From: a bacterium
Lineage (GTDB): Bacteria > Patescibacteriota > Patescibacteriia > Patescibacteriales > GWC2-42-12
Length of the DNA: 64,000 nucleotides
Assembly: GCA_030649205.1 (NCBI GenBank)
Contig: JAUSGE010000014.1
Location: 28,717-92,716, forward strand
Direction of reading: 5' to 3'
Part shown: positions 5,953 through 61,890 of the stretch, in pieces
Position numbering within the stretch: position 1 is the first letter of the stretch
Layout of the letters: the number at the start of each line of letters is the position of its first letter
Notes under the pieces: generated by a model
Told to the model about the DNA's origin: nothing
What the model saw: the letters and a program-made list of their open reading frames with translations, nothing else
Databases searched by the model: none
Translations under genes and position numbers: made by a program

Positions 5953-6024
5953 AGGCTGAATTTGCCGTTAAGAAAATGGCATGTTTAAGCGGAGCGAGTT
6001 TGCCATTTTTAGGCAAATTCAGCC
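5953..6024 (+). promoter_or_regulatory. long imperfect hairpin (~24 bp stem with one bulge, ~19 nt loop) in the 5' leader of the short UGDH-like gene
   Basis: aggctgaatttgcc...aaaatggca (left arm) pairs with tgccatttt...ggcaaattcagcc (right arm). Sits 68 nt upstream of the ATG at 6092. Confidence 0.6.
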
Positions 6025-6091
6025 GTGCCGCAGGCAAAAATCATCCTGGATGCGAGTAAATATTCAGGAATCAATCCGCAATCAAAACATT

Positions 6092-6946
6092 ATGACTATC
6101 GGTTTTATCGGCCAGGGCTGGATCGGAAAAAATTACGCTGATGATTTTGAGCAGCGCGGTTTCACTGTGACGCGCTATAGTTTGGAGGCGGAGTATAGCG
6201 GCAACAAAGATAAAATTAAAGATTGCGATATTGTATTTATCGCCGTGCCTACGCCGACCACGCCGTCCGGCTATGATGCCAGTATTGTTAAATCAGCGGT
6301 CAAGCTGGTTGGCCGAGGCAAGATCGCGGTTATAAAATCAACCATGCTTCCGGGAGCGACCGAAGAAATTCAGGCGGAAAATCCGGAGATTATCATTCTG
6401 CACTCGCCTGAATTTTTGACCCGTTCCACAGCCGATCATGACGTAAAACGGCCGCCGCGAAACATTATCGGACTGCCCAAAGATAACGACGGATACCGGA
6501 AAGCCGCGCGATTGGTTTTGAACTTAATACCTCAAGCGCCATTCAACCTGATCTGCGCCGCCAAAGAAGCGGAGATGATAAAATATGTCAGGAACTGCCA
6601 GGGCTATTTCAGGGTAATTTTCGCTAATTTGGCCTATGATTTGGCCGCGGCCATCGGCGCCGACTGGCAAAAAATTGAATCAGCCATGGCGGCCGACCCG
6701 ATTAACGGCGGTTATTATTTTAAGCCGGTCCACGACCGCGGACGGGGCGCCGGCGGCCCGTGCTACATTAAAGATTTCGCGGCTTTTGCCAGGCTATACC
6801 AAGAAAAAACCGGCGATGAAGCGGGCGGCAAAGTTTTAGCCAGCCTGGAACATAAAAATATTGAATTATTGGCGCAAAGCGGTAAAGATTCTGATTTGCT
6901 TAAAGGCGTTTATGGGGAAGGCGCGGTTAACAAAATAATTACATAA
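6092..6946 (+). CDS. short UDP-glucose/GDP-mannose dehydrogenase-family protein (~284 aa; N-terminal NAD domain plus catalytic Cys, no C-terminal UDP-binding domain)
   Basis: Start chosen at MTIGFIGQGWIGKNYA (Rossmann GxGxxG) rather than the ORF-track start at 5981, which would run through the hairpin. A GGPCYIKD motif parallels the GGSCFIKD of the upstream paralog. Confidence 0.6.
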   Translation: MTIGFIGQGWIGKNYADDFEQRGFTVTRYSLEAEYSGNKDKIKDCDIVFIAVPTPTTPSGYDASIVKSAVKLVGRGKIAVIKSTMLPGATEEIQAENPEIIILHSPEFLTRSTADHDVKRPPRNIIGLPKDNDGYRKAARLVLNLIPQAPFNLICAAKEAEMIKYVRNCQGYFRVIFANLAYDLAAAIGADWQKIESAMAADPINGGYYFKPVHDRGRGAGGPCYIKDFAAFARLYQEKTGDEAGGKVLASLEHKNIELLAQSGKDSDLLKGVYGEGAVNKIIT

Positions 6947-13143: not shown

Positions 13144-14592
13144 ATGAATAATAGATTATTATTAGTCAACCCGCCGTTTAATGTCGCCAAAGACAATTAC
13201 GACAGCTCGGTATCGGTCGGTTTATTAAGCCTGGCCACCTATTTGGACTGGCGCGGCGTGCCGGTAAAACTTATTGATGGCGTCCGGCAGAAAGATTTTT
13301 TAAAAATTTTTCAACAGGCAGCCGCCGCGAGCGACTTAATTTGTTTTTCCGTTATGACCATGCAGATACCGCAAGCGCTGGAATTATCCGAGCTGGCAAA
13401 AGAGATTAATCCGCAAAGCAAAATTATCTGGGGCGGCGCTCATCCGACTTTTTTCCCGGAACAAACAGCCAGGCATAGCCTGATTGACGCGGTGGTAATA
13501 GGCGATGGCGAGTATGTTATTTTTGATTTGTTTAACGAGCCGGACTGGCAAAAAGTTAACGGCATCGCTTATAAAAAGGGCGGGGAAGTCGTAATTAATT
13601 CTCGGCAAAAGCCGCTTGATCCTAAAACCATGCCGCTGTTTAACTGGGAACTTGAGCCCAGAGAAATACTGGAAAATTTGAGTTTAATCCCGACGCTCAC
13701 TTCCCGCGGCTGTCCTCATCGCTGCGCTTTCTGCATCAACGCCATTCTAAAAAATAGCTGGCGCGCCAGAACCGTTGATCAGGTATTGGAAGATTTAAAG
13801 ATCATAAGCGGCAAGGATTATTTCGCGGGCAAGCCTTTAAGATTTTGGGACGAAAATTTTTTTGTTGACATTAGGCGGGCTAAAGCCATAGTTAATGGCA
13901 TGATTGAGCGCGGGCTTGAGCGGCCCTGGGAGACGACCGTGCGGGCTAATTATATCAGCGCGGCCATGGTTGACGATAATTTTATGGGAAAAATGAAGCA
14001 GTCAGGCTGTTATCTTTTATCGTTCGGCGCCGAATCCGGCTCGCAAATTGTTTTGGATAAAATTAAAAAAGACATAACGCCCGAGCAGATTATTTATGCC
14101 GCCAAGCAATGCCTAAAGCACAAGATTATTCCGCAGTTTTCTTTTATGGTGGGGCTTCCCGGAGAATTAAAGCAAGACATGAAATTAACCGTAAAATTGA
14201 TAGATAAATTGATTAAGTTAAGCGACCAGGTGCAGATTTTAGGCCCGCAGGCGTTTCGGCCTTACCCCGGGTCGGAGTTATACCTGGAATGCGTAGCTTC
14301 GGGCTGGAGCGCTCCCGAAACGCTTCCGGCCTGGAGCCATTTGGTAAAAAATCAGCTGAATTATTTGCAAGTGAAGAACTTTAACTGGGTTAAGCACAAG
14401 GATTTTGTTGATTCCATGGAAGCCTACGTGCGCTTCGGCGCGCATAGTATTAAAAGCGCCATGGGGTCGTCGGTTAAAGCGAGAAAGTTTATTAAATTAG
14501 CTTTTGTTTTAATCTGCCAGCTAAGATGGAAATTAAAATTTTTCGCCTGGCCGTTTGAATTCAAACTGGCGAAAAAATTTGTGACGAAATGA
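13144..14592 (+). CDS. B12-binding domain radical SAM protein (class B)
   Basis: N-terminal Rossmann-like B12-binding region (LLLVNPPF..., GGAHPTFFP) followed by the TSRGCPHRCAFC cluster (Cx3Cx2C). Confidence 0.85.
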   Translation: MNNRLLLVNPPFNVAKDNYDSSVSVGLLSLATYLDWRGVPVKLIDGVRQKDFLKIFQQAAAASDLICFSVMTMQIPQALELSELAKEINPQSKIIWGGAHPTFFPEQTARHSLIDAVVIGDGEYVIFDLFNEPDWQKVNGIAYKKGGEVVINSRQKPLDPKTMPLFNWELEPREILENLSLIPTLTSRGCPHRCAFCINAILKNSWRARTVDQVLEDLKIISGKDYFAGKPLRFWDENFFVDIRRAKAIVNGMIERGLERPWETTVRANYISAAMVDDNFMGKMKQSGCYLLSFGAESGSQIVLDKIKKDITPEQIIYAAKQCLKHKIIPQFSFMVGLPGELKQDMKLTVKLIDKLIKLSDQVQILGPQAFRPYPGSELYLECVASGWSAPETLPAWSHLVKNQLNYLQVKNFNWVKHKDFVDSMEAYVRFGAHSIKSAMGSSVKARKFIKLAFVLICQLRWKLKFFAWPFEFKLAKKFVTK

Positions 14593-16031
14593 ATAAAATA
14601 ATTTTGATTCATATCAACCATTCAGAAGACCATTCGGAAAAAATATTGCCGCTTGGCATTTTATCCGTGGGCAGCGCTTTAAAAAAGCATGGCTTCGGTG
14701 CTGAACTTATAAATATTAATGAAACGGAAATAGATCGGACCGTAGATTACGTGGCTGAACAAAATCCATTATACGCGGGTTTTTCCGTGATGACCGGACG
14801 GCAAACAATGCATAGCGCGAAAATGTCAAAAAAATTAAAAGAGCGCGCTAATATTAAAATAATGTGGGGCGGCATCCATCCGTCGCTTTTGCCCGAGCAA
14901 TGCTTGAGCGAAAGCTACATTGATTTTGTCATCTCCGGAGAAGGGGAGGAAACCGCCGTTGAATTTTCCCGCAAACTGCAATCTGGCGAGCCGTTGGCTG
15001 ATATTTTAGGCTTGGGCTATAAAAGCGGCGGCGCGGTTAAAATCAACCCGCCCCGCCCGATGATAAAAAATTTGGATGACTGGCCGCTTGATTTCAGTTT
15101 GCTTGATTTGGAGAAATACATCTTCAGATTGGATAAATTTAAGCGGGTAATCGCTTATAAAGCCAGCCGCGGCTGCCCCTTTAATTGCGCTTTTTGCTAT
15201 AATCGCGCTTTCAATCAAAGCCGCTGGCGTGCTTGGTCGATTGATCTGGTCGTCTCGGATATTGAATATTTAAAGAAAAATTATAAAATTGACGCTGTAA
15301 AATTTTACGATGATAATTTTTTTGTGGATAAAAATCGCGCTTTGGAAATTTTAAGGCGGATTGGCTTGCCGGCGCACCTGGAAGTAAGAATTGATATGAT
15401 TGACGATTCCATAGCCCGGGCGCTTAAAGAATGCCAAGTTTTTGATTTGCTAATCGGCATTGAATCGGGCAGCGACCGGCTGCTAAAATTAATTAATAAA
15501 AATTTTACGGTTGAACGATTGATTGCCGGAGTAAAAATATTGGCCAAATATGACGTGCCGGCCAGCTATTCGGTTATCGTGGGATTGCCGACCGAGACTA
15601 AAGAAGAATTTGAAGCTACGATTGATTTATTGTATAAAATTTATAAAATTCATCCGCGCGCCGCGGCTTTTTCTCTGGGCGCTTATATGCCGTATCCCGG
15701 GTCGCTAATGTACGACTTTGCCATTAATGAGGGCTTTAAGCCGCCGGAGAAAACCGAGAATTGGGGCAGAATCGACAGGTTTAGAAAAGACTTTTCCACG
15801 CCCTGGACGGATGGAGCGCGGGTCTGGCGCATTCGCGAATATTTTAAGCTGTTAAAGTTAAAATTAGGCCCGATGAATAAATGGTTTGAGCTTAGAATTA
15901 AACATAGATGGTTCGCCCTGCCGTTAGACATTTATTTAATAGAATATTTAGCCGGCGCGGCCATTGAAGAAAAAAGCCGGGCAGGTAAAATTATGAGAAA
16001 AATTTATAATTTAATGAAAAATAAATTATGA
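14589..16031 (+). CDS. B12-binding domain radical SAM protein (class B)
   Basis: GGIHPSLLP B12-domain motif; ASRGCPFNCAFCYN (Cx3Cx2C). Confidence 0.85.
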   Translation: MNKIILIHINHSEDHSEKILPLGILSVGSALKKHGFGAELININETEIDRTVDYVAEQNPLYAGFSVMTGRQTMHSAKMSKKLKERANIKIMWGGIHPSLLPEQCLSESYIDFVISGEGEETAVEFSRKLQSGEPLADILGLGYKSGGAVKINPPRPMIKNLDDWPLDFSLLDLEKYIFRLDKFKRVIAYKASRGCPFNCAFCYNRAFNQSRWRAWSIDLVVSDIEYLKKNYKIDAVKFYDDNFFVDKNRALEILRRIGLPAHLEVRIDMIDDSIARALKECQVFDLLIGIESGSDRLLKLINKNFTVERLIAGVKILAKYDVPASYSVIVGLPTETKEEFEATIDLLYKIYKIHPRAAAFSLGAYMPYPGSLMYDFAINEGFKPPEKTENWGRIDRFRKDFSTPWTDGARVWRIREYFKLLKLKLGPMNKWFELRIKHRWFALPLDIYLIEYLAGAAIEEKSRAGKIMRKIYNLMKNKL

Positions 16032-19644: not shown

Positions 19645-21000
19645 ATGAAAATTGCTTTAGTCAGGCCAAACTACAAAACTCACTTGATTACCCCGCCGCT
19701 TGGCTTGGGCTATATTTCTTCGTATCTAAAAAGCAAAGGCTGGCGGGTAACAATTATTGACGGATTAAATTTAAATTTAAGCAATGATGAAATAGCTAAT
19801 CTCTGCCAAGATTGCGAGGTTGTGGGAATTACATGCCTTTCTGATTTTTATTTAGAGGCGGTTGATTTAAGTAAAAAACTTAAACAGGCCGGTAAAATTG
19901 TGATTTTAGGCGGAGTCCATCCAAGCGTTTTACCGGCCGAGAGCCAAAAAGAATCCGGCGCCGATTATATTGTGGTCGGAGAAGGGGAAGTAACCTTTGA
20001 AGAATTAATCCGGGCATTGAGCCTTGGCCAAAATCCTTATTCCATTGCCGGCGTCTTCAGTCTAAGCCGTCAAACCGAATTTAAACCAAGGGAATTAATT
20101 GTTGATTTGGATAGTTTGCCGTTTCCTGATTGGGGCCAGCTTGACCCCAGAAAATACCAAAAAGCTCCGCATGGCGCTTTGGTAAAAAATTTTCCGGTGG
20201 CGCCGATAGTTTCAACCAGAGGCTGCCCCTATAGCTGTAAATTTTGCGCCAGCCCGCGTTTTTGGGGCAAGCGATTGAGGTTTCGCTCTCCGGAGAATGT
20301 CATAGCTGAAATTGAGCTGCTGGTTAAAAATTTCGGCGTTAAAGAAATACATTTTGAAGACGATAATTTAACATTAAGGCGGGAACATGCCATGGCTATC
20401 TGCAATTTAATTATTGCCAGAGGCGTTAAAATTTCTTGGGCCACGCCTAATGGCATTAGAGCTGACAAAGTTGACGAAGAATTGCTGAGGCTGATGAAAA
20501 CAGCCGGTTGCTATTATGTTGTTTTCGGAATTGAAAGCGGCAACCAAAAAATATTGGAGAATATCAATAAAAAGGAAACTTTGGCTGATATAGAAAAAGC
20601 TGTAAAGATAGCCAATAAGTTAGGCATGATGACTCAGGGTTTTTTTATTTTAGGGCTTCCCGGAGAAACCGAAGAAACCATTAAAAATTCTATTGACTTT
20701 GCCAAGCGCATACCGCTGGACCGAGCGCAGTTCTTGATTTTAGATCTATTGCCTGGCTCGGCTCTATGGGAAGAACAAAAAAATAATTTTGTGGTGGATT
20801 ACAAAAAAGAAAGTTATCATGAGCCGACTTGGGTGCCGGATACGATATCGCCGGAAACTCTTAAAAAATGGCAGCCCAAAGCGTTTCGCTCTTTCTTTTT
20901 TCGCCCGGGTCCGCTATTCTCCCTGATTAAGTTTTTTCGCCTGTCGCAAATAAAATATATTATTAATCGATTAAAAGATTTTAAGATTTTCAATTCTTAA
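19645..21000 (+). CDS. B12-binding domain radical SAM protein (class B)
   Basis: GGVHPSVLP; [14 protein letters not shown] (Cx3Cx2C). Confidence 0.85.
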
Positions 21001-23602: not shown

Positions 23603-24295
23603 ATGAGATTATCCATAGTAATACCGGTTTTTAATGAAAAGAATACTATTCTGGAAATTTTAAAAAGAATTGAAGCGGTTGATTTAGGCGCGGAAAAAGA
23701 AATTATTATCGTTGATGATTGTTCTACGGATGGAACTCGGGAGTTATTAAAGCCGATAAAAGGAAAATACAAAATTTTTTTTCATGAAAAAAATTACGGC
23801 AAGGGGCGGGCCTTGCGGACTGGTTTGATTGAGGCGACTGGCGAGGCAATAGTCGTTCAGGATGCTGATTTAGAATATGATCCGGCTGATTTTGCCTTAA
23901 TGTTAAAAATAATGCGGGAGCAGAATGCTTTAGCGGTTTATGGTTCTCGGCGCTTGCATCATAATTATTTTGAAGGCCGTTATTCCGGGCATATTTTTGC
24001 TTTAGGCGGTATTTTTTTGACCTGGCTGACTAATCTTTTGTATAAGACCGGAATAACCGATGAACCGACCTGCTATAAAATGTTTAAAACCGGCTTGCTT
24101 AAAAGTTTAGATTTAAAGTGCGAGCGTTTTGAATTTTGTCCCGAGGTTACGGCTAAAATTGCCAAACGCGGAATAAAGATTATTGAAGTGCCGATAAATT
24201 ATTATCCGCGCCATAAGCGTGAAGGCAAAAAAATTAATTGGCAAGACGCGGTGGAGGCTGTCTGGACGTTATTAAAATACCGTTTTAAAAAATGA
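23603..24295 (+). CDS. GT2 polyprenol-phosphate glycosyltransferase (GtrB/DPM1-like), paralog of 10881..11579
   Basis: [43 protein letters not shown] is near-identical in its N-terminal ~50 aa to the gene at 10881. Confidence 0.8.
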   Translation: MRLSIVIPVFNEKNTILEILKRIEAVDLGAEKEIIIVDDCSTDGTRELLKPIKGKYKIFFHEKNYGKGRALRTGLIEATGEAIVVQDADLEYDPADFALMLKIMREQNALAVYGSRRLHHNYFEGRYSGHIFALGGIFLTWLTNLLYKTGITDEPTCYKMFKTGLLKSLDLKCERFEFCPEVTAKIAKRGIKIIEVPINYYPRHKREGKKINWQDAVEAVWTLLKYRFKK

Positions 24296-24299
24296 AAAA

Positions 24300-25703
24300 A
24301 TGAGTAAAATTTTATTAATCAATCCGCCCTGGATAATTGGCGAAGATAAAAATTTATGGAAAGGCGTGGCCAGCTGCTGGCCAAGCCTAGGCTTGGCTTA
24401 TATCGCCGCAGTGCTTGAGAAAGCCGGACATAAAGTATTGTATCTGGATTGTTCGGCCGAACAGTACACGGTTAAGGAGTCGGCGCAAGCGCTTGAAAAA
24501 TATGATAAAAATTTGGATTTTGTTCTTTTGACCGCCACCACGCCTTTAATTAATAACGCGTTAGCGATTGCGGCCGCCGCTAAAAATATTTTTTCTCTGG
24601 CAAAAATTGTTTTAGGCGGAGTGCATCCCTCAATCCTGCCCGACGAAGTTATGGCGTGCGGCAGCGTTGATTTTGTAGTTATTGATGAGGGTGAAATTAC
24701 CATGAAGGAATTGGCCGGAGGAAAAAGTCCGGCTGAAATTTTAGGTTTATGCTATAAAGAAAACGGACTGATAATAAAAAACGCGCCCCGCCCCCTAATT
24801 CAGAACTTAGACGAAATTCCGCCGCCGGCTTATCACTTATTACCAATGGATAAATATTTTCCGGCCGTGGGGAGTTATAAAAGATTGCCCGTGATGATAA
24901 TGTTTGCCACCAGGGGTTGTCCGGGCCGCTGCACTTTTTGCTGCCGCACTTTCGGAGGCAGAGTTCGCCGCCGGTCAGCTCGTAATATTATTGAAGAAAT
25001 AAAGATTTTACAAAGAGATTACGGTATAAGAGAAGTGGCTTTTTACGATGATACTTTTACTTTGTTTAAAGATGTGGTAAAGGAATTTTGCGATATAATT
25101 GAGAGAGAAAAAATTGATCTTACCTGGTCCTGTTTTACCCGGGTTGATTATGCAAGCGAAGAGCTGTTTAAAATAATGAAGCGAGCCGGCTGCCATTTAA
25201 TTTTATTTGGCGTGGAATCCGCCGATGAGGAAATTTTAAAAAATATTAAAAAAAATATTTCTTTGCGGCAAGTTGAAAAAGTGGTAAAATTAGCGCGTCA
25301 GCTCGGCATAGAAACACGCGCTTCTTTTATGTTCGGCAATCAGGGCGAGACGGAAGAAACCATTAAAAAAACTATTGATTTCGCGATTAAGCTGGATCCG
25401 GACGAAGCGCAATTTAATATCGCTATGGCCTACCCGGGGACAGAACTTTTTAACTGGGCCAAAGAGCGGGGTTATATTAAAAGTTTTAACTGGAGCGATT
25501 ACAGTTATTCCAATATCGTTTTTGAAATGCCGAATTTAGACCGGGCCAAGCTGAAATATTATTACGAGCTGGCGCATCGCCGGTTCTATTTCCGGCCAAA
25601 ACTTATTTTACGGCGCTTGGGGCGTATTAGAACCTTTGATCAGCTATGGCAGGAGGTGAAAGGCGGATTATTGCTGCTCGGTTTTGTTTTTGGCAAAAAA
25701 TAA
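24300..25703 (+). CDS. B12-binding domain radical SAM protein (class B)
   Basis: GGVHPSILP; ATRGCPGRCTFCCR (Cx3Cx2C). Confidence 0.85.
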   Translation: MSKILLINPPWIIGEDKNLWKGVASCWPSLGLAYIAAVLEKAGHKVLYLDCSAEQYTVKESAQALEKYDKNLDFVLLTATTPLINNALAIAAAAKNIFSLAKIVLGGVHPSILPDEVMACGSVDFVVIDEGEITMKELAGGKSPAEILGLCYKENGLIIKNAPRPLIQNLDEIPPPAYHLLPMDKYFPAVGSYKRLPVMIMFATRGCPGRCTFCCRTFGGRVRRRSARNIIEEIKILQRDYGIREVAFYDDTFTLFKDVVKEFCDIIEREKIDLTWSCFTRVDYASEELFKIMKRAGCHLILFGVESADEEILKNIKKNISLRQVEKVVKLARQLGIETRASFMFGNQGETEETIKKTIDFAIKLDPDEAQFNIAMAYPGTELFNWAKERGYIKSFNWSDYSYSNIVFEMPNLDRAKLKYYYELAHRRFYFRPKLILRRLGRIRTFDQLWQEVKGGLLLLGFVFGKK

Positions 25704-25752
25704 AATATTAGTTATTTTAAGTTCCGTTTTGGGTTATAAAATAAATAATTAA

Positions 25753-27078
25753 ATGGAAAATTTTTTTAAAAAAAATAAAATATTGATTTTAATTTTAACC
25801 GGCGCCTTTTTAGCCAGCTTGGCATATTCTTTTTATTTTAGAATTGAGCTGGCGGTTGACGCCAGGGCTTATGACAATATTGCTAAAAATATTATAGCTG
25901 GCAACGGTTATCGCGAGGATTTGGGCGGTGATATCGCTCAAGACAATGCGATTACGCGGGTTGGCCCGCTATATGAATTTACGCTAGCCGGCAGCTATAA
26001 AATATTTGGGTACCATTATGAAGCCGTTTGGATTTTGCAGGCGCTGCTCCATGCTTTAACCGCCTGGTTATTGTATTTGACATGTTTGTTAATATTTTCA
26101 GCTAACGAAAAGAGAAAAACAATTGCTTTGCTCGCCGCCGGCATTTTTGCCTTTTATCCCGATCTCATAGAAATTTCAGCCATGCTTATGACTGAAACGT
26201 TGTATTTGTTTTTTGTTTGTCTTTTATTCTATGTGTTTTTCTATTATTTTTCCCGGCCGGATAAATGGCGTCTAGCGCTGGCGCTGGGTTTGATCTTCGG
26301 TTTGGCGGTTTTAGCCCGTCCACCGGTGCTTTTTTTAGCGCCGGTTATAATTTTCCTTTTTTGGAGTAAAAAAAAGTGGCTGCCATTAGCGCTGTGTTTG
26401 ATTGTCTTGTTTTTGGTTTTTGCGCCATGGACCATCAGAAATTATTTAACCTATGGAGAAATAATGCCCTTTGGCGCGGCTGGAAATTATAATTTTTGGA
26501 TTGGCAATTGGCACGGCGGCGATGGCGAGCAGAATCCTCAGCCATTTCATGCCGTTTTCGCGTCAACGCATGCGACTAAAGAAATTAATAGCGAGTCAAT
26601 GCGCCAGTTTAAGTTATTTTTACGCGAGCATCCGTTTGAGTTTTTAAAACTGACCGCGCTTCGCGTTATTAAATATTTCAGTATTGCGAGGCCGATGGGC
26701 TGGTGGTTTTATCAGGCTGGGATTGGGCAGCTGCTTTTTGTTTTTTCTTCGGCCCTGGCTTCAATTATTTTGTTTATTTTTAGCCTTGGCGGAGCGATTA
26801 AGGCTTTTATGCTTCGGGAAGAAAAATTGAATTATTTATTAGCTTTAACAATTTTTACGCCGCTGATTATTTTCGTTACCGTCGTGGAAACGCGCTATCG
26901 GTTCCAGATTTATCCGTTATTGGCAATTTTTGCCGGTTATTATATGGTTGATTTTTATAAAATGAAACATTTGGATAAATATTTTTGGCCGGCGGCGGTC
27001 GTTATATTAACTAACGGTTTTCTTGATTTAATATTAAGCTGGGATAAATTTAAAGAAAGGATATTCAAATTTTTTTAA
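25753..27078 (+). CDS. GT-C-fold membrane glycosyltransferase (ArnT/PMT/GT39-like, polyprenol-phosphate-sugar dependent)
   Basis: 441 aa with ~11 TM helices; N-terminal periplasmic-loop acidic residues (DARAYDNIAKNI); resembles PMT_2-type glycosyltransferases. Confidence 0.55.
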   Translation: MENFFKKNKILILILTGAFLASLAYSFYFRIELAVDARAYDNIAKNIIAGNGYREDLGGDIAQDNAITRVGPLYEFTLAGSYKIFGYHYEAVWILQALLHALTAWLLYLTCLLIFSANEKRKTIALLAAGIFAFYPDLIEISAMLMTETLYLFFVCLLFYVFFYYFSRPDKWRLALALGLIFGLAVLARPPVLFLAPVIIFLFWSKKKWLPLALCLIVLFLVFAPWTIRNYLTYGEIMPFGAAGNYNFWIGNWHGGDGEQNPQPFHAVFASTHATKEINSESMRQFKLFLREHPFEFLKLTALRVIKYFSIARPMGWWFYQAGIGQLLFVFSSALASIILFIFSLGGAIKAFMLREEKLNYLLALTIFTPLIIFVTVVETRYRFQIYPLLAIFAGYYMVDFYKMKHLDKYFWPAAVVILTNGFLDLILSWDKFKERIFKFF

Positions 27079-27079
27079 T

Positions 27080-28432
27080 ATGAAAGTAATATTATTGGAT
27101 ATTAAAGGCGCCTCGGCCAGAAAATGCGTTAATAAGGATTTATCCGGAGGCATGGGAACCGCCACCTGGGTCGGCGACTCATTTTTGGCCCGTGTTTTTG
27201 AGCGCGTCAAAAAAACAAACGTAGTTCTGCCGGAAATCACGATCGCTTATCTGGCCGCAATTTTTAAAAAATTCGGCTGGGAGGCCGAGGTGGCTGAGAT
27301 TAAAATAGGCTTGGAAAATTTTCGGAAAAAAGCGGATTTGGTTTTAGTGTTAAGTTCTATCGTTGATTGCGGCCATGAATTGGCTATCGTAGGCGAGCTT
27401 AAAGAAAAAGGCTATCATGTTGGAGTGTTCGGATCTTTCGCTACGGCTGTTCCGGAATTTTTTTCCAAGGCTGACTTTGTGATTAAAGGCGAGCCGGAAG
27501 CGGGCGCCTGGCAGATCGCTTCGCATAACTTATTGCCAAAAGGAATTATGGAAGTCGCGCCAATTGCCGACCTTAATTCTTTGCCGTATCCGGATTGGAG
27601 TTTTTTTCCGATTAAAAAGTATTCTTATTCTCCGGCTTTAAATAAAAAACCGGTCGTCGCCATGCTGGCTTCGCGGGGCTGTCCATATGGCTGTTCATTC
27701 TATTGCCCTTATTCAATAAATTCCGGCAGAACCTGGCGCGCGCGGAGCGTTGATAACGTGATTGGCGAGATGGAATATTTGAAGAAAAATTATGGCGTTA
27801 AGGCGGTTGATTTTAGAGACCCGGTTTTTACCTTAAACCGCGAGCGAACCGTGAAATTGGCTCAAGCCATGATAAAAAATAATTTAGGCATAATCTGGTC
27901 TTGCGAAACCAGAATTGATTGCTTGGATAAAGAACTTATTTTAATTATGAAACAAGCGGGTTTGCGGCATATCAATGCCGGCGTGGAGTCATTTAATGAA
28001 GAGGTGCTGAAAAAATCCAAGCGCCTGCCGATTCGCGCCGTTCACCAGGAAGAGATAATTTCTTTTTGCCATAAAAATGGTATTTCTGTCGCCGCTTTTT
28101 ATATTATCGGGCTTGAAGGCGACACTAAAGCCAGCGTCAAAGAGACTATTAAATATGCCAAAAAATTAAATACTCTAGTAGCTCAATTTACCATTAGCAC
28201 GCCCTATCCCGGAACGGAATTTTTTAATCAAGCTAAAGCGCAGGGCAGGCTGCTAACGCAGGCTTGGGAGCAATATGATATTTATACTCCGGTCGTAGAG
28301 CATGAAAATTTAAGCTCGGCCGATCAACTGGAGTTAAAAGAAGAAGCTTTTATCGCCTATTATTTTCGACCGCGTTATTTGCTGACCCATATGCCTAAAT
28401 ATTTATTGCAAAAATTTTTATGGCCGTTTTAA
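27080..28432 (+). CDS. B12-binding-domain radical SAM paralog with non-canonical Cys cluster (Cx3Cx3C)
   Basis: ASRGCPYGCSFYCPYS; codons verified at ~27672-27710 (tgt cca tat ggc tgt tca ttc tat tgc). Rest of the core is conserved with the paralogs (RTWRARSVD). Confidence 0.75.
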   Translation: MKVILLDIKGASARKCVNKDLSGGMGTATWVGDSFLARVFERVKKTNVVLPEITIAYLAAIFKKFGWEAEVAEIKIGLENFRKKADLVLVLSSIVDCGHELAIVGELKEKGYHVGVFGSFATAVPEFFSKADFVIKGEPEAGAWQIASHNLLPKGIMEVAPIADLNSLPYPDWSFFPIKKYSYSPALNKKPVVAMLASRGCPYGCSFYCPYSINSGRTWRARSVDNVIGEMEYLKKNYGVKAVDFRDPVFTLNRERTVKLAQAMIKNNLGIIWSCETRIDCLDKELILIMKQAGLRHINAGVESFNEEVLKKSKRLPIRAVHQEEIISFCHKNGISVAAFYIIGLEGDTKASVKETIKYAKKLNTLVAQFTISTPYPGTEFFNQAKAQGRLLTQAWEQYDIYTPVVEHENLSSADQLELKEEAFIAYYFRPRYLLTHMPKYLLQKFLWPF

Positions 28433-29238
28433 TTACCGGCGCCAAAGGATTTATCGGTTCGCGCTTAGTATCTTTTTTAAAAGAGGCGGGTTTTGATTTG
28501 GTAAATTTTGCCGCTGATATTACTGATCGTCAAGCGGTTTTAAGCTGGTCAAGCGATAAGAAAATTGAGGCGGTTATTCATCTGGCCGCGATTATGGGCG
28601 GGCGCAATAAAAGTTTGTTTAAAAAGATAAATATTGACGGGACCGGAAACATAATTGAGCTGTGCAAAAAAATCAGAGCCGGCCGTTTAATTTTTATGTC
28701 AAGTTTAAGGGCGCTTTCGTCCGAGCCAGATGATCCTTATGTTAATTCCAAAAAAGAAGCGGAAAAATTAGTTATTGACTCCGGCCTGCCTTATGTAGTT
28801 TTGCGGCCAAGCATGATTTACGGCCCGGGCGATAAAAAAAATATTGGATTTTTGCTAAAAATCGCCAGAACTTTGCCGCTAGTTCCGGTTTTTAATTTTA
28901 GGCTGCAGCCTTTATTTGTTGACGATGTTGCCAGAGTTATTATGGCTTGTTTTAAGGCCGCGCCAAACCAGACAATCAATCTGGCTGGCCAAGAAACTAT
29001 CAGCTATGCCGATTTGCTGGAATTATTAAAAGTTAAAGGTTATAAAATAAGGAGGCTTAACGCGCCGCGGCTGTTTAATTTTTTACTGAAGATTTTTTCT
29101 TGCCTGCCTTTTTCGCCGCTGCCGTATTGGCAGGTCAAAACTCTGTTGGCGGATGAAATTTTTGCAGGCAGCCAATGGCCCGGGAAGTTCAACATAAAGT
29201 GGACTTCTCTGGAGGAGGGAATGGCAAAAGTGGTTTGA
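28420..29238 (+). CDS. NAD-dependent epimerase/dehydratase-family SDR (short, 272 aa)
   Basis: ITGAKGFIGSRL Rossmann motif; YVNSKKEAE (YxxxK). Confidence 0.7.
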   Translation: MAVLITGAKGFIGSRLVSFLKEAGFDLVNFAADITDRQAVLSWSSDKKIEAVIHLAAIMGGRNKSLFKKINIDGTGNIIELCKKIRAGRLIFMSSLRALSSEPDDPYVNSKKEAEKLVIDSGLPYVVLRPSMIYGPGDKKNIGFLLKIARTLPLVPVFNFRLQPLFVDDVARVIMACFKAAPNQTINLAGQETISYADLLELLKVKGYKIRRLNAPRLFNFLLKIFSCLPFSPLPYWQVKTLLADEIFAGSQWPGKFNIKWTSLEEGMAKVV

Positions 29239-37463: not shown

Positions 37464-37724
37464 ATGCGGCATTTAAGAAGAATGTTTTTAGCCTATTTCC
37501 GGACAGAGTACGTAAAAAAACAGATTTTATCAAGAAAAGGCGAGTGCGGGCATCACGGTTGCTGCGGCGACTCGCCGTGGTCATGGTTTTTTACCAGAAA
37601 ATGCCTTAAGGGAAAAGATTGTTTAAAATGGAGTAATTTGCCATATTATTGCAAATTATATCCGATAGATGAAAAAGATAAAGCGCCTAAAACAAAAAAA
37701 TATTGTAATTTTTATTGGGATTGA
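37464..37724 (+). CDS. small Cys/His-rich hypothetical protein (86 aa, 8 Cys)
   Basis: Fills an otherwise unexplained 270 bp gap in a tightly packed operon; stop 4 nt before the next start; CGHHGCCGD...C-x5-C...C...C pattern; no homolog recognised. Confidence 0.4.
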   Translation: MRHLRRMFLAYFRTEYVKKQILSRKGECGHHGCCGDSPWSWFFTRKCLKGKDCLKWSNLPYYCKLYPIDEKDKAPKTKKYCNFYWD

Positions 37725-37728
37725 TTAT

Positions 37729-39564
37729 ATGAATAAAATAAAATCCTTTTTTAATTATCTAAGACTGGCGGTTTTAAACCATAAATTGGCGTTGGTTGGC
37801 GCCATACTCGTCGGTTTGATTTATATCTTGCCGAATATTTTTTTCATAGCGTCTTTGGGTAAAAATTATCATGGCATTCCCATGATGCAGACCGCTAATG
37901 AAGATTTTTATTTAGCCAGAATTCAAAAAGTCATTGATGGGCATTCTTTGCTCGGCCCGGCGGTTTTTTATGAAAACCGGCATCAGGGATCATTGACGCC
38001 CGCCGGCGGAGAGATTTTTTATGCCCTGCCCAGCCGGCTGTTGCGTCTGTCGCCTGTCAATCTAGTGATTGCCAGCAGGTTTGTTCTGCCGTTTATTCTA
38101 TTCTTCCTGGTTTATTTTTTAATTAGCCGGCTGACGGCAAATAGCTTTTCAGCCTTAAATAAAATTAACGCCATTGCCGGAGCTTTATTGGTAACCTTGG
38201 GTTATGATTTGGTGGATTACCGATCTACCTGGCTTTTTTTGACCGGAAAAATAAGCGGCGGTAATTTTTTAATCTGGGCCAGGCTGGTTAATCCGGTAAT
38301 GGGCGCGTTTTTTTTATTTTCTTTTTTGCTCTGTTTATGGGTAATTATCAGGCAAGAGCGGTATCGCAAAACTTTAATTGCCGCGGCCGGCGGATTTTTG
38401 GCGCTGGCGATTTATACTTATTTTTTTAGCTGGGGCATCGCGGTTTCGGTTTTGGCGATTTTGGGGCTGGTTTATCTGTTGGAAAAAAGATATGGCTTAA
38501 TTAAAAGCTTGGCGGCGATCGGGTTGGTGGCGGCCGTTTTATCCTCGCCCTATTGGTTTTTTTCCTGGCAGTTAAGCCGAGCGCAGGGGTATAAAGAAGC
38601 TTTATTGCGCAATGGCCTTTTTTATACCCATTATCCATTAGGGAATAAAATTTTACTGGCAGCGCTGGCGTTTTACGCGATAGCCACTATTTTTTTATTC
38701 ATAAAAAGAAAAACTTTACCTTTATGGAAGGAGCGGATAATGGACGGCGGACTAAAAAATAGGCCGCAAGATTGGTATATCTTCTCTTTGGCTTTGCTGT
38801 TAGGCGGCCTGTGGGCGCTAAATCAGCAAATTATTACCGGACGAACCATTTATCCGTATCATTTTGTCCAATATACCATTCCCTTGGCCATGATTGCCGC
38901 TATGGTTCTATTTTATAATCTTCTAACAGTTAAACGGACGGTAATTTGGCGCTTGGCGCTTTTTTTTATTATAATGGTTTCTTTAGGCTGGGGTATATTT
39001 ACCCAAGTTAAAGCATATCGAGTTTCTTTTGATTATTTCGCCGGACTGCAAGTTTATGGGCCGCTGTTTGATTGGCTGAATCTTCAGCCGAAAGATAACG
39101 TGGTTTTTGTTAATAACTCTGACTTTTTAAATGGCCTAGTTCCGGCCTTTACCCATAGTAATGTTTATTCTTCAACCTTTGCCTATAATTTAATTGATCC
39201 TAATCGCAGACATGACAGTTATTTGGCGCGGATTCGCCTGAAAGGCGTAACCGCTGAAGAATTTGATGAATATCTAAAGCAAAACAGGCATGAGGCGGTT
39301 GGTTATTTGTTTTCCAACTGGAAGGTTTTATACGGGATTAAGCAATTTCCCGATTTTTCCGACCCATTGTTTGAAGAAAAAATAAAAAAATTACCCGAGG
39401 ACTATCGGAAATTTTATGCTAAAGATTTTCGCCAAGCTTTAAGCAAATATAGGCTGGATTATATTTTATCTGTTGGACCGTTATCGGATAAGGTTCAGGC
39501 AGATTTAGGCGGAGTAACTGAAGTTTTCCGGTCTGGAGATATATTAATATATAATTTTAAATAG
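37729..39564 (+). CDS. large polytopic membrane protein with a C-terminal soluble domain (putative GT-C glycosyltransferase/polymerase)
   Basis: ~12 hydrophobic helices in the first ~430 aa, then a ~180 aa hydrophilic tail; start at MNKIKSFF just after the upstream stop. Confidence 0.45.
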   Translation: MNKIKSFFNYLRLAVLNHKLALVGAILVGLIYILPNIFFIASLGKNYHGIPMMQTANEDFYLARIQKVIDGHSLLGPAVFYENRHQGSLTPAGGEIFYALPSRLLRLSPVNLVIASRFVLPFILFFLVYFLISRLTANSFSALNKINAIAGALLVTLGYDLVDYRSTWLFLTGKISGGNFLIWARLVNPVMGAFFLFSFLLCLWVIIRQERYRKTLIAAAGGFLALAIYTYFFSWGIAVSVLAILGLVYLLEKRYGLIKSLAAIGLVAAVLSSPYWFFSWQLSRAQGYKEALLRNGLFYTHYPLGNKILLAALAFYAIATIFLFIKRKTLPLWKERIMDGGLKNRPQDWYIFSLALLLGGLWALNQQIITGRTIYPYHFVQYTIPLAMIAAMVLFYNLLTVKRTVIWRLALFFIIMVSLGWGIFTQVKAYRVSFDYFAGLQVYGPLFDWLNLQPKDNVVFVNNSDFLNGLVPAFTHSNVYSSTFAYNLIDPNRRHDSYLARIRLKGVTAEEFDEYLKQNRHEAVGYLFSNWKVLYGIKQFPDFSDPLFEEKIKKLPEDYRKFYAKDFRQALSKYRLDYILSVGPLSDKVQADLGGVTEVFRSGDILIYNFK

Positions 39565-43813: not shown

Positions 43814-45487
43814 TTGTTTTATAAAATAATAAATTTTTTATATATGCCATTGGGAGAAAAATCAGAAAAAATCGTTATTGTGGGCTTTGGCTGGGTCGGT
43901 CAGGCCAACGCGCTGGCGCTTATTAGAATGGGCTTTGAAGTTTTTTATTATGACGTCCTGGCGCCGAAATACCACTATGCGGATAAATACCTAGGGTTTT
44001 ACGAAAAAATAAAACCGCTGGATAATCTCCTGCAAGCCGACAGCCCCGACACTTGGTATGTAATATGCATTGGCGACCGGGTGAATGAAAACGGACATCA
44101 GGATATCTCTTTGATTGAGAGGGCTTTAGAATTATTGCGGCCGGCGCGGGGAAATATTATTCTGCGCTCAACGGTTTTACCGAAATATCTGAAGGGCTTG
44201 CCTTTTGATATTTATTTGCCGGAATTTCTCCATGAAATAAACGCGGTTGAAGATTGCTTAAACCCTTTTATCTTCGCTTTAGGCAGCTGGAAAAAAATTA
44301 TTTATCCGAGTTTTATTGAACAATGGGAAAAACGGGCTTACAAAGTTTTTAAAGGCGCGCCCGAAGAGGCCTCATATATTAAATATTTATCCAATATTTG
44401 GAACTCCCTGCGCGTTGCTTTTGTTAATGAGTTCGGCGACAGCATTTCCCTCCCGCAGAATAAAGAACGGCAGAAAAAAATTGCCAATATCATTGATTTC
44501 CTGTTTGATAAAAAAAGTTATCTGCGCTACGGCCAAGCCTACGGCGGCCATTGCCTGCCGAAAGATACCCAGGCTTTCTTAACCTGGAAAGAAGAAGCTG
44601 GCCCGTCGCCGATTCTGCGAGCGATCCATGAATCAAACATTTTACATCAGCAAATTACCGATGCTTACGCTCTGCCGCAATGGTTTTCTTCGTGGGATTA
44701 TGATAATTACCGCCGCGCGACCGCTTTAATCACGCGCTGGTGGCATAATTTTAATTCTTTAAAAATAATTAAGTCTACCCGGCAAATTTTAAAACCAGCC
44801 GTCAAGCTGTTTTCTCTGCGCGCCGCCAATAAATCTTTGCCCGAGATTAAAAACAACTGGGAAAAATTAGCCAAAAAAAATCCGTACTATTATGCAAACT
44901 CCGAGACTAAATCACGGCAAAAAGTAGATGAATTTGAGCTTCGCCAAAGCGGCGAAAATGATTACTTAAAATATATTTCTGGCGATGATTTGCTTCATAA
45001 ATTCTTGGGTGATTTTAAGGATAAAATCGCGCTGGACATTGGCGTTGGAGTCGGACGCATGACTGAATTTTTTAGCCAAGACTTTAAAATAATTTATGGC
45101 ATTGATATTTCGCCCAACATGCTAACTATTGCCGGCAAACGTTTATCTGCCCTCAATAACATTGAGCTAGCCGCCAGCGCGGGCGATGACATTCCCTTTA
45201 GCGATGCCGAATTTGATTTAATTTTTTCACATTTAACCTTTAAGCATTTGCCGAATACAGCCATAACGCAAAATTATTTTAAGGAAATTTTCCGGACATT
45301 AAAACCCGGCGGCTTAGCCAAAATACAGCTGCGCACCGGCGCCACGCCGCATTTTTGGCAATGGTTTTACGGCGTGTCGCTGACGCCGGAGCAAGCGTTA
45401 TCTTTGGCCGATAAAGCTGGATTACAAATAGCTAAAACAGAAATAGAAAATAGCAAGAGCTTATGGGTTTGGGTTAAAAAAATATAA
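43814..45487 (+). CDS. fusion: UDP-glucose/GDP-mannose-dehydrogenase-like N-terminal region plus C-terminal class I SAM methyltransferase
   Basis: IVIVGFGWVGQANALAL (Rossmann) ... YGGHCLPKD (the UGDH-family GGxCxxKD catalytic motif) ... C-terminal LDIGVGVGRMTEFF with LKPGGLAKIQ (MT motifs I and post I). Alternative start M at 43844. Confidence 0.6.
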   Translation: MFYKIINFLYMPLGEKSEKIVIVGFGWVGQANALALIRMGFEVFYYDVLAPKYHYADKYLGFYEKIKPLDNLLQADSPDTWYVICIGDRVNENGHQDISLIERALELLRPARGNIILRSTVLPKYLKGLPFDIYLPEFLHEINAVEDCLNPFIFALGSWKKIIYPSFIEQWEKRAYKVFKGAPEEASYIKYLSNIWNSLRVAFVNEFGDSISLPQNKERQKKIANIIDFLFDKKSYLRYGQAYGGHCLPKDTQAFLTWKEEAGPSPILRAIHESNILHQQITDAYALPQWFSSWDYDNYRRATALITRWWHNFNSLKIIKSTRQILKPAVKLFSLRAANKSLPEIKNNWEKLAKKNPYYYANSETKSRQKVDEFELRQSGENDYLKYISGDDLLHKFLGDFKDKIALDIGVGVGRMTEFFSQDFKIIYGIDISPNMLTIAGKRLSALNNIELAASAGDDIPFSDAEFDLIFSHLTFKHLPNTAITQNYFKEIFRTLKPGGLAKIQLRTGATPHFWQWFYGVSLTPEQALSLADKAGLQIAKTEIENSKSLWVWVKKI

Positions 45488-48971: not shown

Positions 48972-50927
48972 ATGTTAAAAATATACCTAGCTGATCTCGT
49001 GTACGATACTATCAAAACAAACTACACGGTTCCTCTTAATATTGCCTATATCGCGGCATTGCTTGAAAAAAGATTCAGCAAACAAGTCAAGATTATTCTT
49101 TTTAAGTATCCAAAGGAACTTGAAAAAGCCATATCTAAGGATCCTCCGGACATTATCGGGCTTAGCCATTATAGTTGGAATTCTAGGCTTAGCCTTCTTT
49201 TTGTTAATATGGTTAAAAGGTTGAACCCAAAGGTAATAACAGTAATGGGCGGACCAAATATAAGAACTGAACCATCTGGCATAAAGGCGTTCTTGAAAGC
49301 AAACCCGAATCTTGATTACTACATTATGTTTGAGGGGGAAGAGTCTTTTGCGGACTTGGTAGGAGGCATCCTCAACGGAAAAGTAAGACCAACCCCAAAT
49401 AGTTGCGCGACAATTATTGGCGGAAAACTGATTTATTCTCCCGTTGATTTTATCAAGAAACCAAAAGAGATTGACCTGCCAAGCCCATATCTTACAGGCT
49501 GGCTTAACAAATTTCTTAAGGACCCGAATATGATCCCCTTGCTTGAAACAAACAGAGGTTGCCCGTTTGGTTGTTTATATTGCGCCTGGGGAGTTACTAC
49601 ATTGTCAAAGGTAAGATTGAGGGATCTAAGCGTGATCAAAAAAGAGATCGAATATGTTGCTGAAAATTCCGCGGGTCAGGTAAAATGGATTTTTTGCGAC
49701 GCTAACTTTGGATTATTTGATCGTGATGTTGAAATTGCCAAGATTATAAGAAATGTCATGGACAAAAAAGGATTTCCAGTATTATTGGATCTTTACCATT
49801 CTAAAAATACGAGTGAAAGAAATATTGAGATAGCCAAGATAATAAAAACCCAATCGGGATATATTGCAATCCAGTCTTCTGACCCCTGCGTTCTTAAGTG
49901 TTGCGGCAGAGGCGGTATTAACATGGATCATATAAAAGCTCAGATTAAGTATTATAAAGATAATAACATGGAAGTTGGCACGGACATTCTTATCGGGCTT
50001 CCCGGAGAAAGCGTAAAAAACCACCTGACTTCCTTAAAGGACTCATTTGATATCGGATTTGATGATATTCGCCCGTATAATATCCGGCTTTTGCCTGGGT
50101 CAAAATATGAAGACGATACGCGCAGAAAGGAATATGCAATAAAGACAAAATTCAGGCCAATTTTTGGCGCATATGGCATCTATGATGAAAAGATTGTTTT
50201 TGAGATTGAGGAATCGGTCAGAGCTACAAAAGACATGTCCGAAAAAGAGCTTAACAATTTTAAGATTCATCATTGGCTGATCTATTTTGCCTGGAATGTA
50301 GGAATGTTTAAACCCATTCTCAAATTTGCTCAAAAAAGAGGCGCCAACCCCGGAGAAGTATTGGATAAACTCGCACATTCCAAGGATCCATCGATAAAGA
50401 GAATATTTGATTATATGAAGAATAAATCAATGGAAGAATGGTTTAATACAAAAGAGGATATGATCAAATTCTATAAGAGCCGGAGGAACTACGATAAACT
50501 CGTAAACGAATTTGTAAAACTAAACTTTTTGTACATCGCGCTGGTTTATAAAGATGCCGGTATATTAACATCAATCCAAAATGAACTAGTCAGAATCCTA
50601 AGAGAAGAATACCGTATTGGAGGTATATTATTTGACAAAACGCTAGACTTGACAGAAAAATTGGCCTGCAAGGACTTATTGCAAGGGGATACCAGTAAGA
50701 GAGTGAAATATCCCGGAGAGGTTGTCTCTTTAATAATAAATAATCCCGAGCTTTTAAAAAAACAAAGTGTTGAAGTTGAGATTTACAGGCCTAAGAAGTA
50801 TGATTCTTTATGCCGGTTTTATTTAATGCCTAATGGCAAAAAGGACATTTCTTTAAAAAATTTCACAAGGTTTTTGGAGAATGACGGAATGTTTACATTG
50901 AGGAACAAGATTAGATTGGTTAGTTAG
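48972..50927 (+). CDS. B12-binding-domain radical SAM protein with ~200 aa C-terminal extension (651 aa)
   Basis: MGGPNIRTEP region; TNRGCPFGCLYCAWG (Cx3Cx2C); longer than the ~450-480 aa paralogs. Confidence 0.8.
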   Translation: MLKIYLADLVYDTIKTNYTVPLNIAYIAALLEKRFSKQVKIILFKYPKELEKAISKDPPDIIGLSHYSWNSRLSLLFVNMVKRLNPKVITVMGGPNIRTEPSGIKAFLKANPNLDYYIMFEGEESFADLVGGILNGKVRPTPNSCATIIGGKLIYSPVDFIKKPKEIDLPSPYLTGWLNKFLKDPNMIPLLETNRGCPFGCLYCAWGVTTLSKVRLRDLSVIKKEIEYVAENSAGQVKWIFCDANFGLFDRDVEIAKIIRNVMDKKGFPVLLDLYHSKNTSERNIEIAKIIKTQSGYIAIQSSDPCVLKCCGRGGINMDHIKAQIKYYKDNNMEVGTDILIGLPGESVKNHLTSLKDSFDIGFDDIRPYNIRLLPGSKYEDDTRRKEYAIKTKFRPIFGAYGIYDEKIVFEIEESVRATKDMSEKELNNFKIHHWLIYFAWNVGMFKPILKFAQKRGANPGEVLDKLAHSKDPSIKRIFDYMKNKSMEEWFNTKEDMIKFYKSRRNYDKLVNEFVKLNFLYIALVYKDAGILTSIQNELVRILREEYRIGGILFDKTLDLTEKLACKDLLQGDTSKRVKYPGEVVSLIINNPELLKKQSVEVEIYRPKKYDSLCRFYLMPNGKKDISLKNFTRFLENDGMFTLRNKIRLVS

Positions 50928-60725: not shown

Positions 60726-61890
60726 ACCAAAAAAAATAATGAAAGTAGCGGTTGTAACCGGCACCAGGGCGGAATACGGAATTTTAAAGCCATTATTAAA
60801 AAAAATTAAAAATTTTTCTGGTTTTAAATTAGAGTTAATGATTACGGGTATACATTTATTAAAGCGATATGGTCTGACGATCGGAGAAATTAAAAAAGAT
60901 GGTTTTAAAACGGATGAGAGAGTTGTTATGTATGAAAAAAACGAGGAAGCAAGTTGTTACTACGGAGAGGCATTGGGAAAGGGAATAAAAAATTTTACGA
61001 AGATGTTTTTAAAAATTAAGCCCGATCTTTTAATAGTGCTCGGCGATCGACTGGAGCCTTTGGCTGCGACCCTGTCTGCGGCGAATTTAATAATTCCCAT
61101 CATCCATATTCATGGCGGAGAAAAAACCAACAGCGGCTGTATTGATGAAAGTATCAGGCACGCCATCACCAGATTTGCTCATATTCATCTGGTATCAACA
61201 GAACAGAGTAAACAAAGGCTCATAAAAATGGGCGAAGAGCCGTGGCGGATATTCAGGGTGGGCGCGCTGGGACAAGAAAGCTTTTTGAATTCCCCTAAGA
61301 TAAAGAGGGAGGTTCTTTTTGGTAAATTTCGGCTGGACAGCAAGCAGAAGCTTATTCTTTGCCTGTTTAATCCGGTTATTTTTGAAGCGGATAAAATGGG
61401 AAGGCATATGCGGGAAATATTGAAAGCGCTTGAAGAGTTAAAAATTCAAAGCATTATTATTTATCCGAACAACGACATTGGCGGCAAGGATATCATAAAA
61501 GAAATAGATAAGCACAAGAATTCGCCGTTTATAAAAATTTACCCCAACCTGAACCATGAAGATTATGTTAGTTTATTAAAACAGGCCAATGTTTTAATAG
61601 GAAATTCCAGTTCCGGCATCATTGAGGCGCCATCTATTAAATTACCAGTGGTGAATATCGGTTTAAGAAATACCGGGCGGGAGCACGCGGAGAATATTAT
61701 ATTCGCGGATCCGGCTAAAAATGATATTATAGAGGCGATTAAAAAAACGCTTTATGACAAAAAATTCAGGAAAAAATTGAAGACATGCAAAAATCCTTAC
61801 GGAGATACAAAAACAGTTGAAAAAATTATTAATATTTTAAATAAAATAAAAATTAATAAAAAGCTGCTTACCAAGTATCTTACTTATTGA
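60712..61890 (+). CDS. UDP-N-acetylglucosamine 2-epimerase, hydrolysing type (NeuC/LegG-like); alternative start ATG 60739
   Basis: MKVAVVTGTRAEYGILKPLL...DRLEPLAATLSAANLIIPIIHIHGGEKT are canonical NeuC motifs. Confidence 0.8.
   Translation: MSKNKPKKIMKVAVVTGTRAEYGILKPLLKKIKNFSGFKLELMITGIHLLKRYGLTIGEIKKDGFKTDERVVMYEKNEEASCYYGEALGKGIKNFTKMFLKIKPDLLIVLGDRLEPLAATLSAANLIIPIIHIHGGEKTNSGCIDESIRHAITRFAHIHLVSTEQSKQRLIKMGEEPWRIFRVGALGQESFLNSPKIKREVLFGKFRLDSKQKLILCLFNPVIFEADKMGRHMREILKALEELKIQSIIIYPNNDIGGKDIIKEIDKHKNSPFIKIYPNLNHEDYVSLLKQANVLIGNSSSGIIEAPSIKLPVVNIGLRNTGREHAENIIFADPAKNDIIEAIKKTLYDKKFRKKLKTCKNPYGDTKTVEKIINILNKIKINKKLLTKYLTY

Follow-up and report, generated by a model that had tools for sequence, protein, structure and literature searches.

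In this work we propose, with a probability of roughly 0.6, that a radical S-adenosylmethionine (SAM) protein encoded in a Patescibacteriota genome, whose cluster-binding cysteines are spaced CX3CX3C and not CX3CX2C, is an intact and functional AprD4-like enzyme for which this spacing is the normal cluster site, and that it would act by dehydrating a sugar which a short-chain dehydrogenase/reductase (SDR) would then reduce. The gene occupies positions 27080-28432 of a stretch of 64,000 nucleotides (nt) that was analyzed in full, here called the window (assembly GCA_030649205.1, contig JAUSGE010000014.1, positions 28,717 to 92,716 of the forward strand, lineage GWC2-42-12). AprD4 itself is the 1,2-diol dehydratase of apramycin biosynthesis, which acts on an aminoglycoside pseudodisaccharide. 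It is a radical SAM enzyme that dehydrates a diol in concert with the NADPH-dependent reductase AprD3 (PMC5461906, PMC7941887). The loop of the window protein is conserved in an intact enzyme, its predicted fold is AprD4-like, and an SDR gene and a glycosylation module are its conserved neighbors.

The three-cysteine loop

The open reading frame (ORF) at 27080-28432, on the forward strand, gives a protein of 450 amino acids (aa), hereafter the target, whose translation contains MLASRGCPYGCSFYCPYSINSGRTWRARSVD and whose cluster loop reads ASRGCPYGCSFYCPYS, that is, CX3CX3C. The cysteines are C201, C205 and C209, encoded by TGT CCA TAT GGC TGT TCA TTC TAT TGC at nt 27680-27706, and translation thus confirms the spacing that an earlier, sequence-only reading of the same DNA had pointed out. 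That reading had also held all seven sister paralogs to be canonical, and so they are: among the 51 long ORFs, all of which were scanned with a regular expression, there are exactly seven radical SAM paralogs besides the target (starts 13144, 14589, 19645, 24300, 48972, 54609 and 61887), each with CX3CX2C, as in SRGCPHRCAFC of 13144. When the target is aligned with them, it is seen to have one residue more after the second Cys and ahead of the aromatic that precedes the third; this aromatic is Tyr208, kept as in the canonical enzymes, and the inserted position comes directly before it. The identity between the target and the seven is only 22-31%, so that these paralogs are old and not recent copies. 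The description of the target as one more paralog copy gives way to that of a member of a different, AprD4-like family. As an observation on the sisters themselves, the one at 24300-25703 reads CPGRCTFCC, with the canonical spacing and a fourth Cys immediately after it.

The features of the target to which the argument refers are the following, all on the forward strand.

27080..28432, forward strand: AprD4-like radical SAM gene, 450 aa, with a predicted N-terminal Rossmann-like domain and a radical SAM core (Pfam PF04055, AlphaFold2 model, Foldseek)
27131..27160, forward strand: N-terminal signature NKDLSGGMGT, which is AGGLGT in the AprD4 clade and missing from the seven sister paralogs (motif comparison, hhalign)
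27680..27706, forward strand: putative CX3CX3C cluster-binding loop, CPYGCSFYC, with C201, C205 and C209, and Y208 before the third Cys (family invariance; same motif in AprD4)
27812..27829, forward strand: FRDPVF motif, in the place of FxDDxF in the sister paralogs and other B12-type radical SAM proteins
27902..27919, forward strand: CETRID motif, common to the AprD4 clade (WWCETRID)

The Pfam model PF04055 matches residues 198-359 with 63.8 bits, against a cutoff of 29.5, which places the target in the radical SAM superfamily; the loop of three cysteines with an aromatic before the third is present, each of these residues being invariant in the family, and only the spacing departs from CX3CX2C.

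A trait of the family

A search of 5.8 billion proteins gave 120 close homologs, 119 of them with a readable motif. The CX3CX3C spacing is found in 89, which come from many independent assemblies and include every homolog at 49% identity or above, and the CX3CX2C form ("C[NS]YCPY") in 30, all at 48% identity or below. The codons of the loop vary from locus to locus while the spacing is preserved, and in an alignment of 76 family members the residues C201, C205, Y208, C209 and Y211 are invariant, with N18, K19, D20, G23, G24 and G26 invariant or nearly so.

These data bear on two ways of dismissing the loop that the sequence-only reading had left standing beside a functional variant. According to the first, the extra residue would be the product of a spurious insertion of 3 nt during sequencing or assembly, which would preserve the reading frame and has no other point in its favor. 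Its probability is practically nil, given that a second, independent assembly (Logan, run SRR13727527) agrees with the window without a single difference in 3353 nt, that TGT TCA TTC TAT TGC holds neither a homopolymer nor a repeat, and that the 89 homologs, which derive from distinct metagenomes, reproduce the spacing with different codons; the second assembly and the homologs together rule out an indel or assembly error. According to the second, the target would be a degenerate or inactive paralog that no longer binds its cluster properly, as could be thought from a motif that deviates from the superfamily consensus and from an N-terminal B12-binding domain that is barely recognizable (16.4 bits). 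This too is very improbable: the ORF stays full-length in orthologs as distant as 44% identity, 35 alignment columns are invariant and 66 nearly so, the three Cys and the aromatic Tyr among them, the AlphaFold2 model is confident, translation of the gene is coupled to that of a conserved partner, and the crystallized and catalytically active AprD4 carries the same motif (PMC5461906). A pseudogene is ruled out by the conservation seen in the family alignment, and annotations should mark the target neither as a pseudogene nor as a frameshift.

There remains the functional variant, which is supported both by the conservation of the spacing across orthologs and by its presence in AprD4, and the motif is almost certainly a functional trait of the family. 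The comparison of orthologs that had been suggested as a check cuts both ways, in that the spacing is shared across the sub-clade, which speaks for function and at the same time takes away the oddity, the motif being a family trait.

The two spacings are not cleanly partitioned. Roughly 3400 relatives have E below 1e-30. Of the 150 best representatives at the level of 50% identity, CX3CX3C occurs in 37 and CX3CX2C in 108, and many of those with CX3CX2C retain the PY, FRDP and CET signatures. In a neighbor-joining (NJ) tree with 200 bootstraps, from which the Cys-loop columns had been removed, neither state is monophyletic within the family in any replicate (0/200 each), and because of this the sequences suggest that the loop may have switched its spacing at least twice. 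If such repeated switches within one orthologous family are real, they constitute a natural experiment on how much spacing variation a SAM-binding cluster tolerates, and orthologs that differ by one loop residue are ready pairs for testing the effect of the spacing.

Several further peculiarities of the loop and its bearers can be recorded here. Eleven orthologs read CPY[GS]CCFYC (P0010-P0013, P0016, P0019, P0020, P0022, P0023, P0074 and P0096; for example, L001 6001-7368), and the extra Cys after the second one would permit an alternative CX4CX2C register of ligation. In the canonical CX3CX2C orthologs the family alignment shows the loop after CPY to be shorter as well, by 1-2 residues, and in the two canonical loci that were examined (L005 and L006) the SDR is longer, 334-355 aa, and weakly similar to the SDR of 271-304 aa beside CX3CX3C members (window, L001, L002, L003, L031-L033). 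Some very long multidomain proteins also include a radical SAM core with 31-36% identity to the target, namely P0191 (2633 aa), P0203 (1826), P0237 (1879), P0229 (1696) and P0289 (1416).

Likeness to AprD4

What had escaped the sequence-only reading is that exactly this spacing variant was already known and structurally characterized, in AprD4 (PDB 6FD2, CPYPCRFYC), where it is read from the chain of that entry. For the target, 6FD2 is the best PDB sequence match (E 2e-37), and in the alignment its chain carries this motif too, as GCPYPCRFYCPYP; the CPYPCRFYCPY of AprD4 and the CPYGCSFYCPY of the target both have CX3CX3C and then PY, with a loop of the form CX3C-x-aromatic-Y-C-P-Y in common. 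Reportedly, the spacing of AprD4 was described as non-canonical in 2016. A literature search for CX3CX3C or CxxxCxxxC together with radical SAM returned only what is probably a misprint concerning NifB, an enzyme that has CX3CX2C, and an unrelated peptide motif.

The likeness extends to the whole molecule. An AlphaFold2 model of the target, built on the family alignment (pLDDT 95.3, pTM 0.92), has 6FD2 as its top PDB match in Foldseek, with E 1e-29 and TM-scores of 0.81/0.80 over the whole length (474 aligned columns), the next entry being TsrM (E 2e-16, TM 0.62). The model thus predicts the AprD4 fold for the target, including the N-terminal Rossmann-like domain of the non-cobalamin kind, and hhalign spans residues 3-415. 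Full-length AprD4, from Streptoalloteichus tenebrarius, and the sequences of its clade were taken from Genome Taxonomy Database (GTDB) genomes; a word-index search with an AprD4 fragment did not return AprD4 itself. The genes of the clade come from Streptoalloteichus, Streptomyces, Actinosynnema, Tumebacillus, a Clostridiaceae genome, Melioribacteraceae, Calditrichaceae, Planctomycetota and Spirochaetia, and all the members examined carry CX3CX3C followed by PYP, save for PNP in L020 and PYV in L018. The target family and this clade share FRD[PA]xF, WxCETRxD and a PY right after the third Cys, all of which are missing from the seven sisters and from HpnJ-like proteins, and they also have in common an N-terminal D[LM]xGGxG(T) element, with a similar GGAG in one HpnJ-like protein (P0136). 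The hhalign comparison of the family with the AprD4 clade gives E 1e-78 and takes in this N-terminal element. The NCBIfam model for AprD4 (NF033070) scores the target at 162.8 bits over residues 162-416, whereas six sisters receive 31-115 bits and the sister 48972 has no match to this model below the 1e-5 limit.

The NJ tree supports the target family at 68% and the AprD4 clade at 58%, and its deep relationships stayed unresolved, so that a common origin of the motif rests on the shared motifs and the fold. On this basis the common descent of CX3CX3C in the target family and in AprD4 is plausible. By analogy with 6FD2, C201, C205 and C209 would ligate the [4Fe-4S] cluster as their counterparts do in AprD4. 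The target cannot be counted as an equivalog of AprD4 and belongs to a family of its own, which is AprD4-like in its cluster site and overall architecture.

Another possibility is that the target is a true methyltransferase of the class B radical SAM type, dependent on cobalamin and peculiar only in its cluster loop. It lies in the sequence neighborhood of B12-dependent enzymes, seven B12-type paralogs are found nearby, and a few orthologs carry a precomputed match to the Pfam B12-binding model PF02310. Most orthologs lack this match, and in the target the score already given falls under the gathering cutoff of 32.1 bits, so that no class B domain is recognized; moreover, the GG(V/I)HPS motif, kept in 5/7 sisters and loosely in 48972 and 54609, is GSFATA in the target, the N-terminus has the GGxGT insert of the AprD4 type, and the best structural match is AprD4, a protein that groups with B12-dependent enzymes and yet binds no cobalamin (PMC12931638). 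A methyltransferase of this kind is thus quite improbable, and that the enzyme is AprD4-like in architecture and independent of cobalamin is probable. The names B12-dependent methyltransferase and BchE/YgiQ, which some sources use, should be avoided for the target, while "AprD4-like radical SAM protein" is defensible.

The reductase partner and the glycosylation module

The genes around the target that recur with it are the following.

23603..24295, forward strand: small GT2 glycosyltransferase, 230 aa (syntenic in L001, L004, L031 and L032)
24300..25703, forward strand: B12-type radical SAM paralog with CX3CX2C, best NCBIfam match HpnJ at 277.7 bits, below cutoff (module member)
25753..27078, forward strand: PMT_2 / GT-C membrane glycosyltransferase, 441 aa (syntenic in L001, L003, L005 and L032)
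28420..29238, forward strand: extended-SDR NAD(P)-dependent oxidoreductase, 272 aa, with TGAKGFIG and YVNSK motifs, overlapping the stop of the radical SAM gene by 13 nt (Pfam Epimerase, PF01370, 74.9 bits)

An SDR of the NAD-dependent epimerase/dehydratase family stands immediately downstream in 9/11 loci of the family, often overlapping (window, L001, L002, L003, L005, L006, L031, L032 and L033), and in L002 the radical SAM and SDR genes form an isolated pair beside a recombinase. Around the homologs of aprD4, an adh_short SDR lies directly 3′ in several Streptomyces, Actinosynnema and Tumebacillus; the adjacency conserved in these loci suggests that, among the SDRs of the S. tenebrarius locus, the adh_short gene is probably AprD3. 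In a Planctomycete relative the place of the SDR is taken by an aldo/keto reductase, and other relatives carry a fused GT2 domain.

Two arrangements in the AprD4 clade are worth recording in their own right. In Tumebacillus avium (L017, 7437-10664) the gene downstream of an aprD4 homolog (48% identity) encodes an adh_short SDR joined in one protein to an APH domain, of the aminoglycoside-phosphotransferase type; a cluster of an aminoglycoside-like kind may thus be present in a genome of the Bacillota. In Planctomycetota, AprD4-like proteins are encoded in ORFs of 877-917 aa (L021 3803-6433, L023 4001-6751, L024 7458-10118), and the C-terminal half of the one in L021 is a GT2 domain, that is, a fusion of radical SAM protein and glycosyltransferase.

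The target belongs to a module of five genes: a GT2 of about 230 aa, a B12-type (HpnJ-like) radical SAM gene of the 24300 type, a PMT_2 (GT-C), the target and the SDR. The complete module recurs, in permuted order, in the window (23603-29238), L001 (2502-8291) and L032 (3501-8356), and part of it is present in L031 (3501-8353) and L004. The ortholog of 24300 is adjacent to that of the target in L001 (795.6 bits) and in L004, and a gene of the same type is found in L031 and L032. This layout suggests that a carrier-linked sugar is modified and afterward transferred by the GT-C.

The window as a whole is an island of glycan biosynthesis, with a Wzy_C ligase-like gene, many GT4 and GT2, UDP-sugar dehydrogenases, several epimerases/dehydratases, three DegT aminotransferases, a sugar C-methyltransferase, an acetyltransferase, NeuB with a cytidylyltransferase, and an ABC exporter. 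Eight genes of the B12-domain type of radical SAM protein are gathered in these 64 kb (13144-16031, 19645-21000, 24300-25703, 27080-28432, 48972-50927, 54609-56042 and 61887-63326), and Patescibacteria, also known as the Candidate Phyla Radiation (CPR), usually have genomes without cobalamin synthesis. Other ORFs of the island with unusual composition are one of 321 aa at 5981-6946, similar to UDP-glucose/GDP-mannose dehydrogenases and devoid of the C-terminal UDP-binding domain, which lies beside a full-length one (4360-5754); one of 557 aa at 43814-45487, which joins a dehydrogenase central domain and a class I methyltransferase domain; and one of 631 aa at 37669-39564, located between two genes of DegT-type aminotransferases and with no Pfam match at E 1e-5 or better.

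Proposed chemistry

If the target works as AprD4 does, its reduced cluster would cleave SAM to a 5′-deoxyadenosyl radical, and this radical would take a hydrogen from a carbon of the sugar, whereupon the vicinal hydroxyl would be eliminated and a keto-sugar would be left. The SDR at 28420-29238 could then reduce the keto-sugar with NAD(P)H, the net result being a deoxygenation. The substrate would probably be a sugar on which the module of GT2, B12-type radical SAM protein, GT-C, target and SDR operates in building a cell-surface glycan or glycolipid. For this specific chemistry, a dehydratase followed by a reductase, the chances would be somewhat short of even.

Various findings weigh against so close an assimilation to AprD4. 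The AprD4 of S. tenebrarius is 32% identical to the target, and this over a core of only 257 residues; the 162.8 bits with the AprD4 model are far from its equivalog cutoff of 500 bits, and the top NCBIfam score of the target goes, marginally, to HpnJ (TIGR03471, 171.7 bits), whose own equivalog cutoff, 577.6 bits, it also fails. The generic B12-type (class B) relatives give in hhalign an almost equally strong E of 2e-74, in an alignment that begins only at residue 46 and leaves the NKDLSGGMGT stretch unaligned. The target family and the AprD4 clade come out as sisters in only 11/200 NJ replicates (5.5%). Finally, the adjacent SDR is absent from 2/11 loci (L004 and L030), and where it is present its class differs, an extended SDR (Epimerase) beside the target as opposed to adh_short beside aprD4.

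Some of these same findings could be accommodated by an enzyme with the architecture of AprD4 and a different radical chemistry on a sugar or lipid, such as a ring contraction of the HpnJ type, a dehydrogenation of the BtrN type, or an epimerization completed by the SDR. This main rival would account for HpnJ being the first NCBIfam match, for the roughly equal distance of the family from the AprD4 and HpnJ-like profiles, for the weak match of the SDR of the target to HpnA (47.9 bits), and for a partner of another SDR family than that beside aprD4. The signature motifs and the best structural match, however, favor AprD4 over HpnJ, and a reductase directly downstream fits a keto intermediate, so that we consider a different chemistry unlikely.

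With the target, the architecture of AprD4 and its CX3CX3C loop extends from the producers of aminoglycosides to a large and uncharacterized family, mostly of Patescibacteria. The tie to the SDR and the glycosylation module suggests that these bacteria may make deoxy-sugars for their surface glycans by radical chemistry. More broadly, and only tentatively, as this is doubtful, there could exist an unnamed and widespread family of AprD4-like, cobalamin-independent sugar dehydratases, each paired with an extended SDR, which would deoxygenate a carrier- or nucleotide-linked sugar within the module of GT2, B12-type radical SAM protein and GT-C, in the service of surface glycosylation in Patescibacteria, the loop having passed between CX3CX3C and CX3CX2C more than once.

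Comparison with known systems

HpnJ, a hopanoid-associated protein, is like the target a radical SAM protein with a B12-domain-like layout, and it acts on an amino-sugar moiety; the HpnJ-like sequences, in contrast to the target, have the canonical CX3CX2C and FxDDxF, and are without CET. The class B enzymes TsrM, MgmA, CysS, TokK and OxsB, which are the next-best structural matches, present the same layout, in which the radical SAM barrel comes after an N-terminal Rossmann-like domain, but their TM values are 0.58-0.70 compared to 0.81 for AprD4, their motif is canonical, and the B12-domain signature that belongs to them was not detected in the target. Other non-canonical spacings exist among radical SAM enzymes, such as CX2CX4C in ThiC, CX5CX2C in HmdB and CX14CX2C in QueE; they belong to unrelated families and are not the source of the motif of the target, and they indicate that the ligation of a SAM-binding cluster by three cysteines tolerates a changed spacing.

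AprD4 is the known system to which the target comes closest, and the two loci coincide in being sugar-modifying settings, each with an adjacent gene for a putative NAD(P)H-dependent reductase, an extended SDR beside the target and an adh_short beside the homologs of aprD4. They differ in host and in setting: no aminoglycoside cluster is found in the window, and the gene of the target lies within a cell-surface glycan island in a metagenome-assembled genome of the Patescibacteria type, and that of AprD4 within an aminoglycoside cluster.

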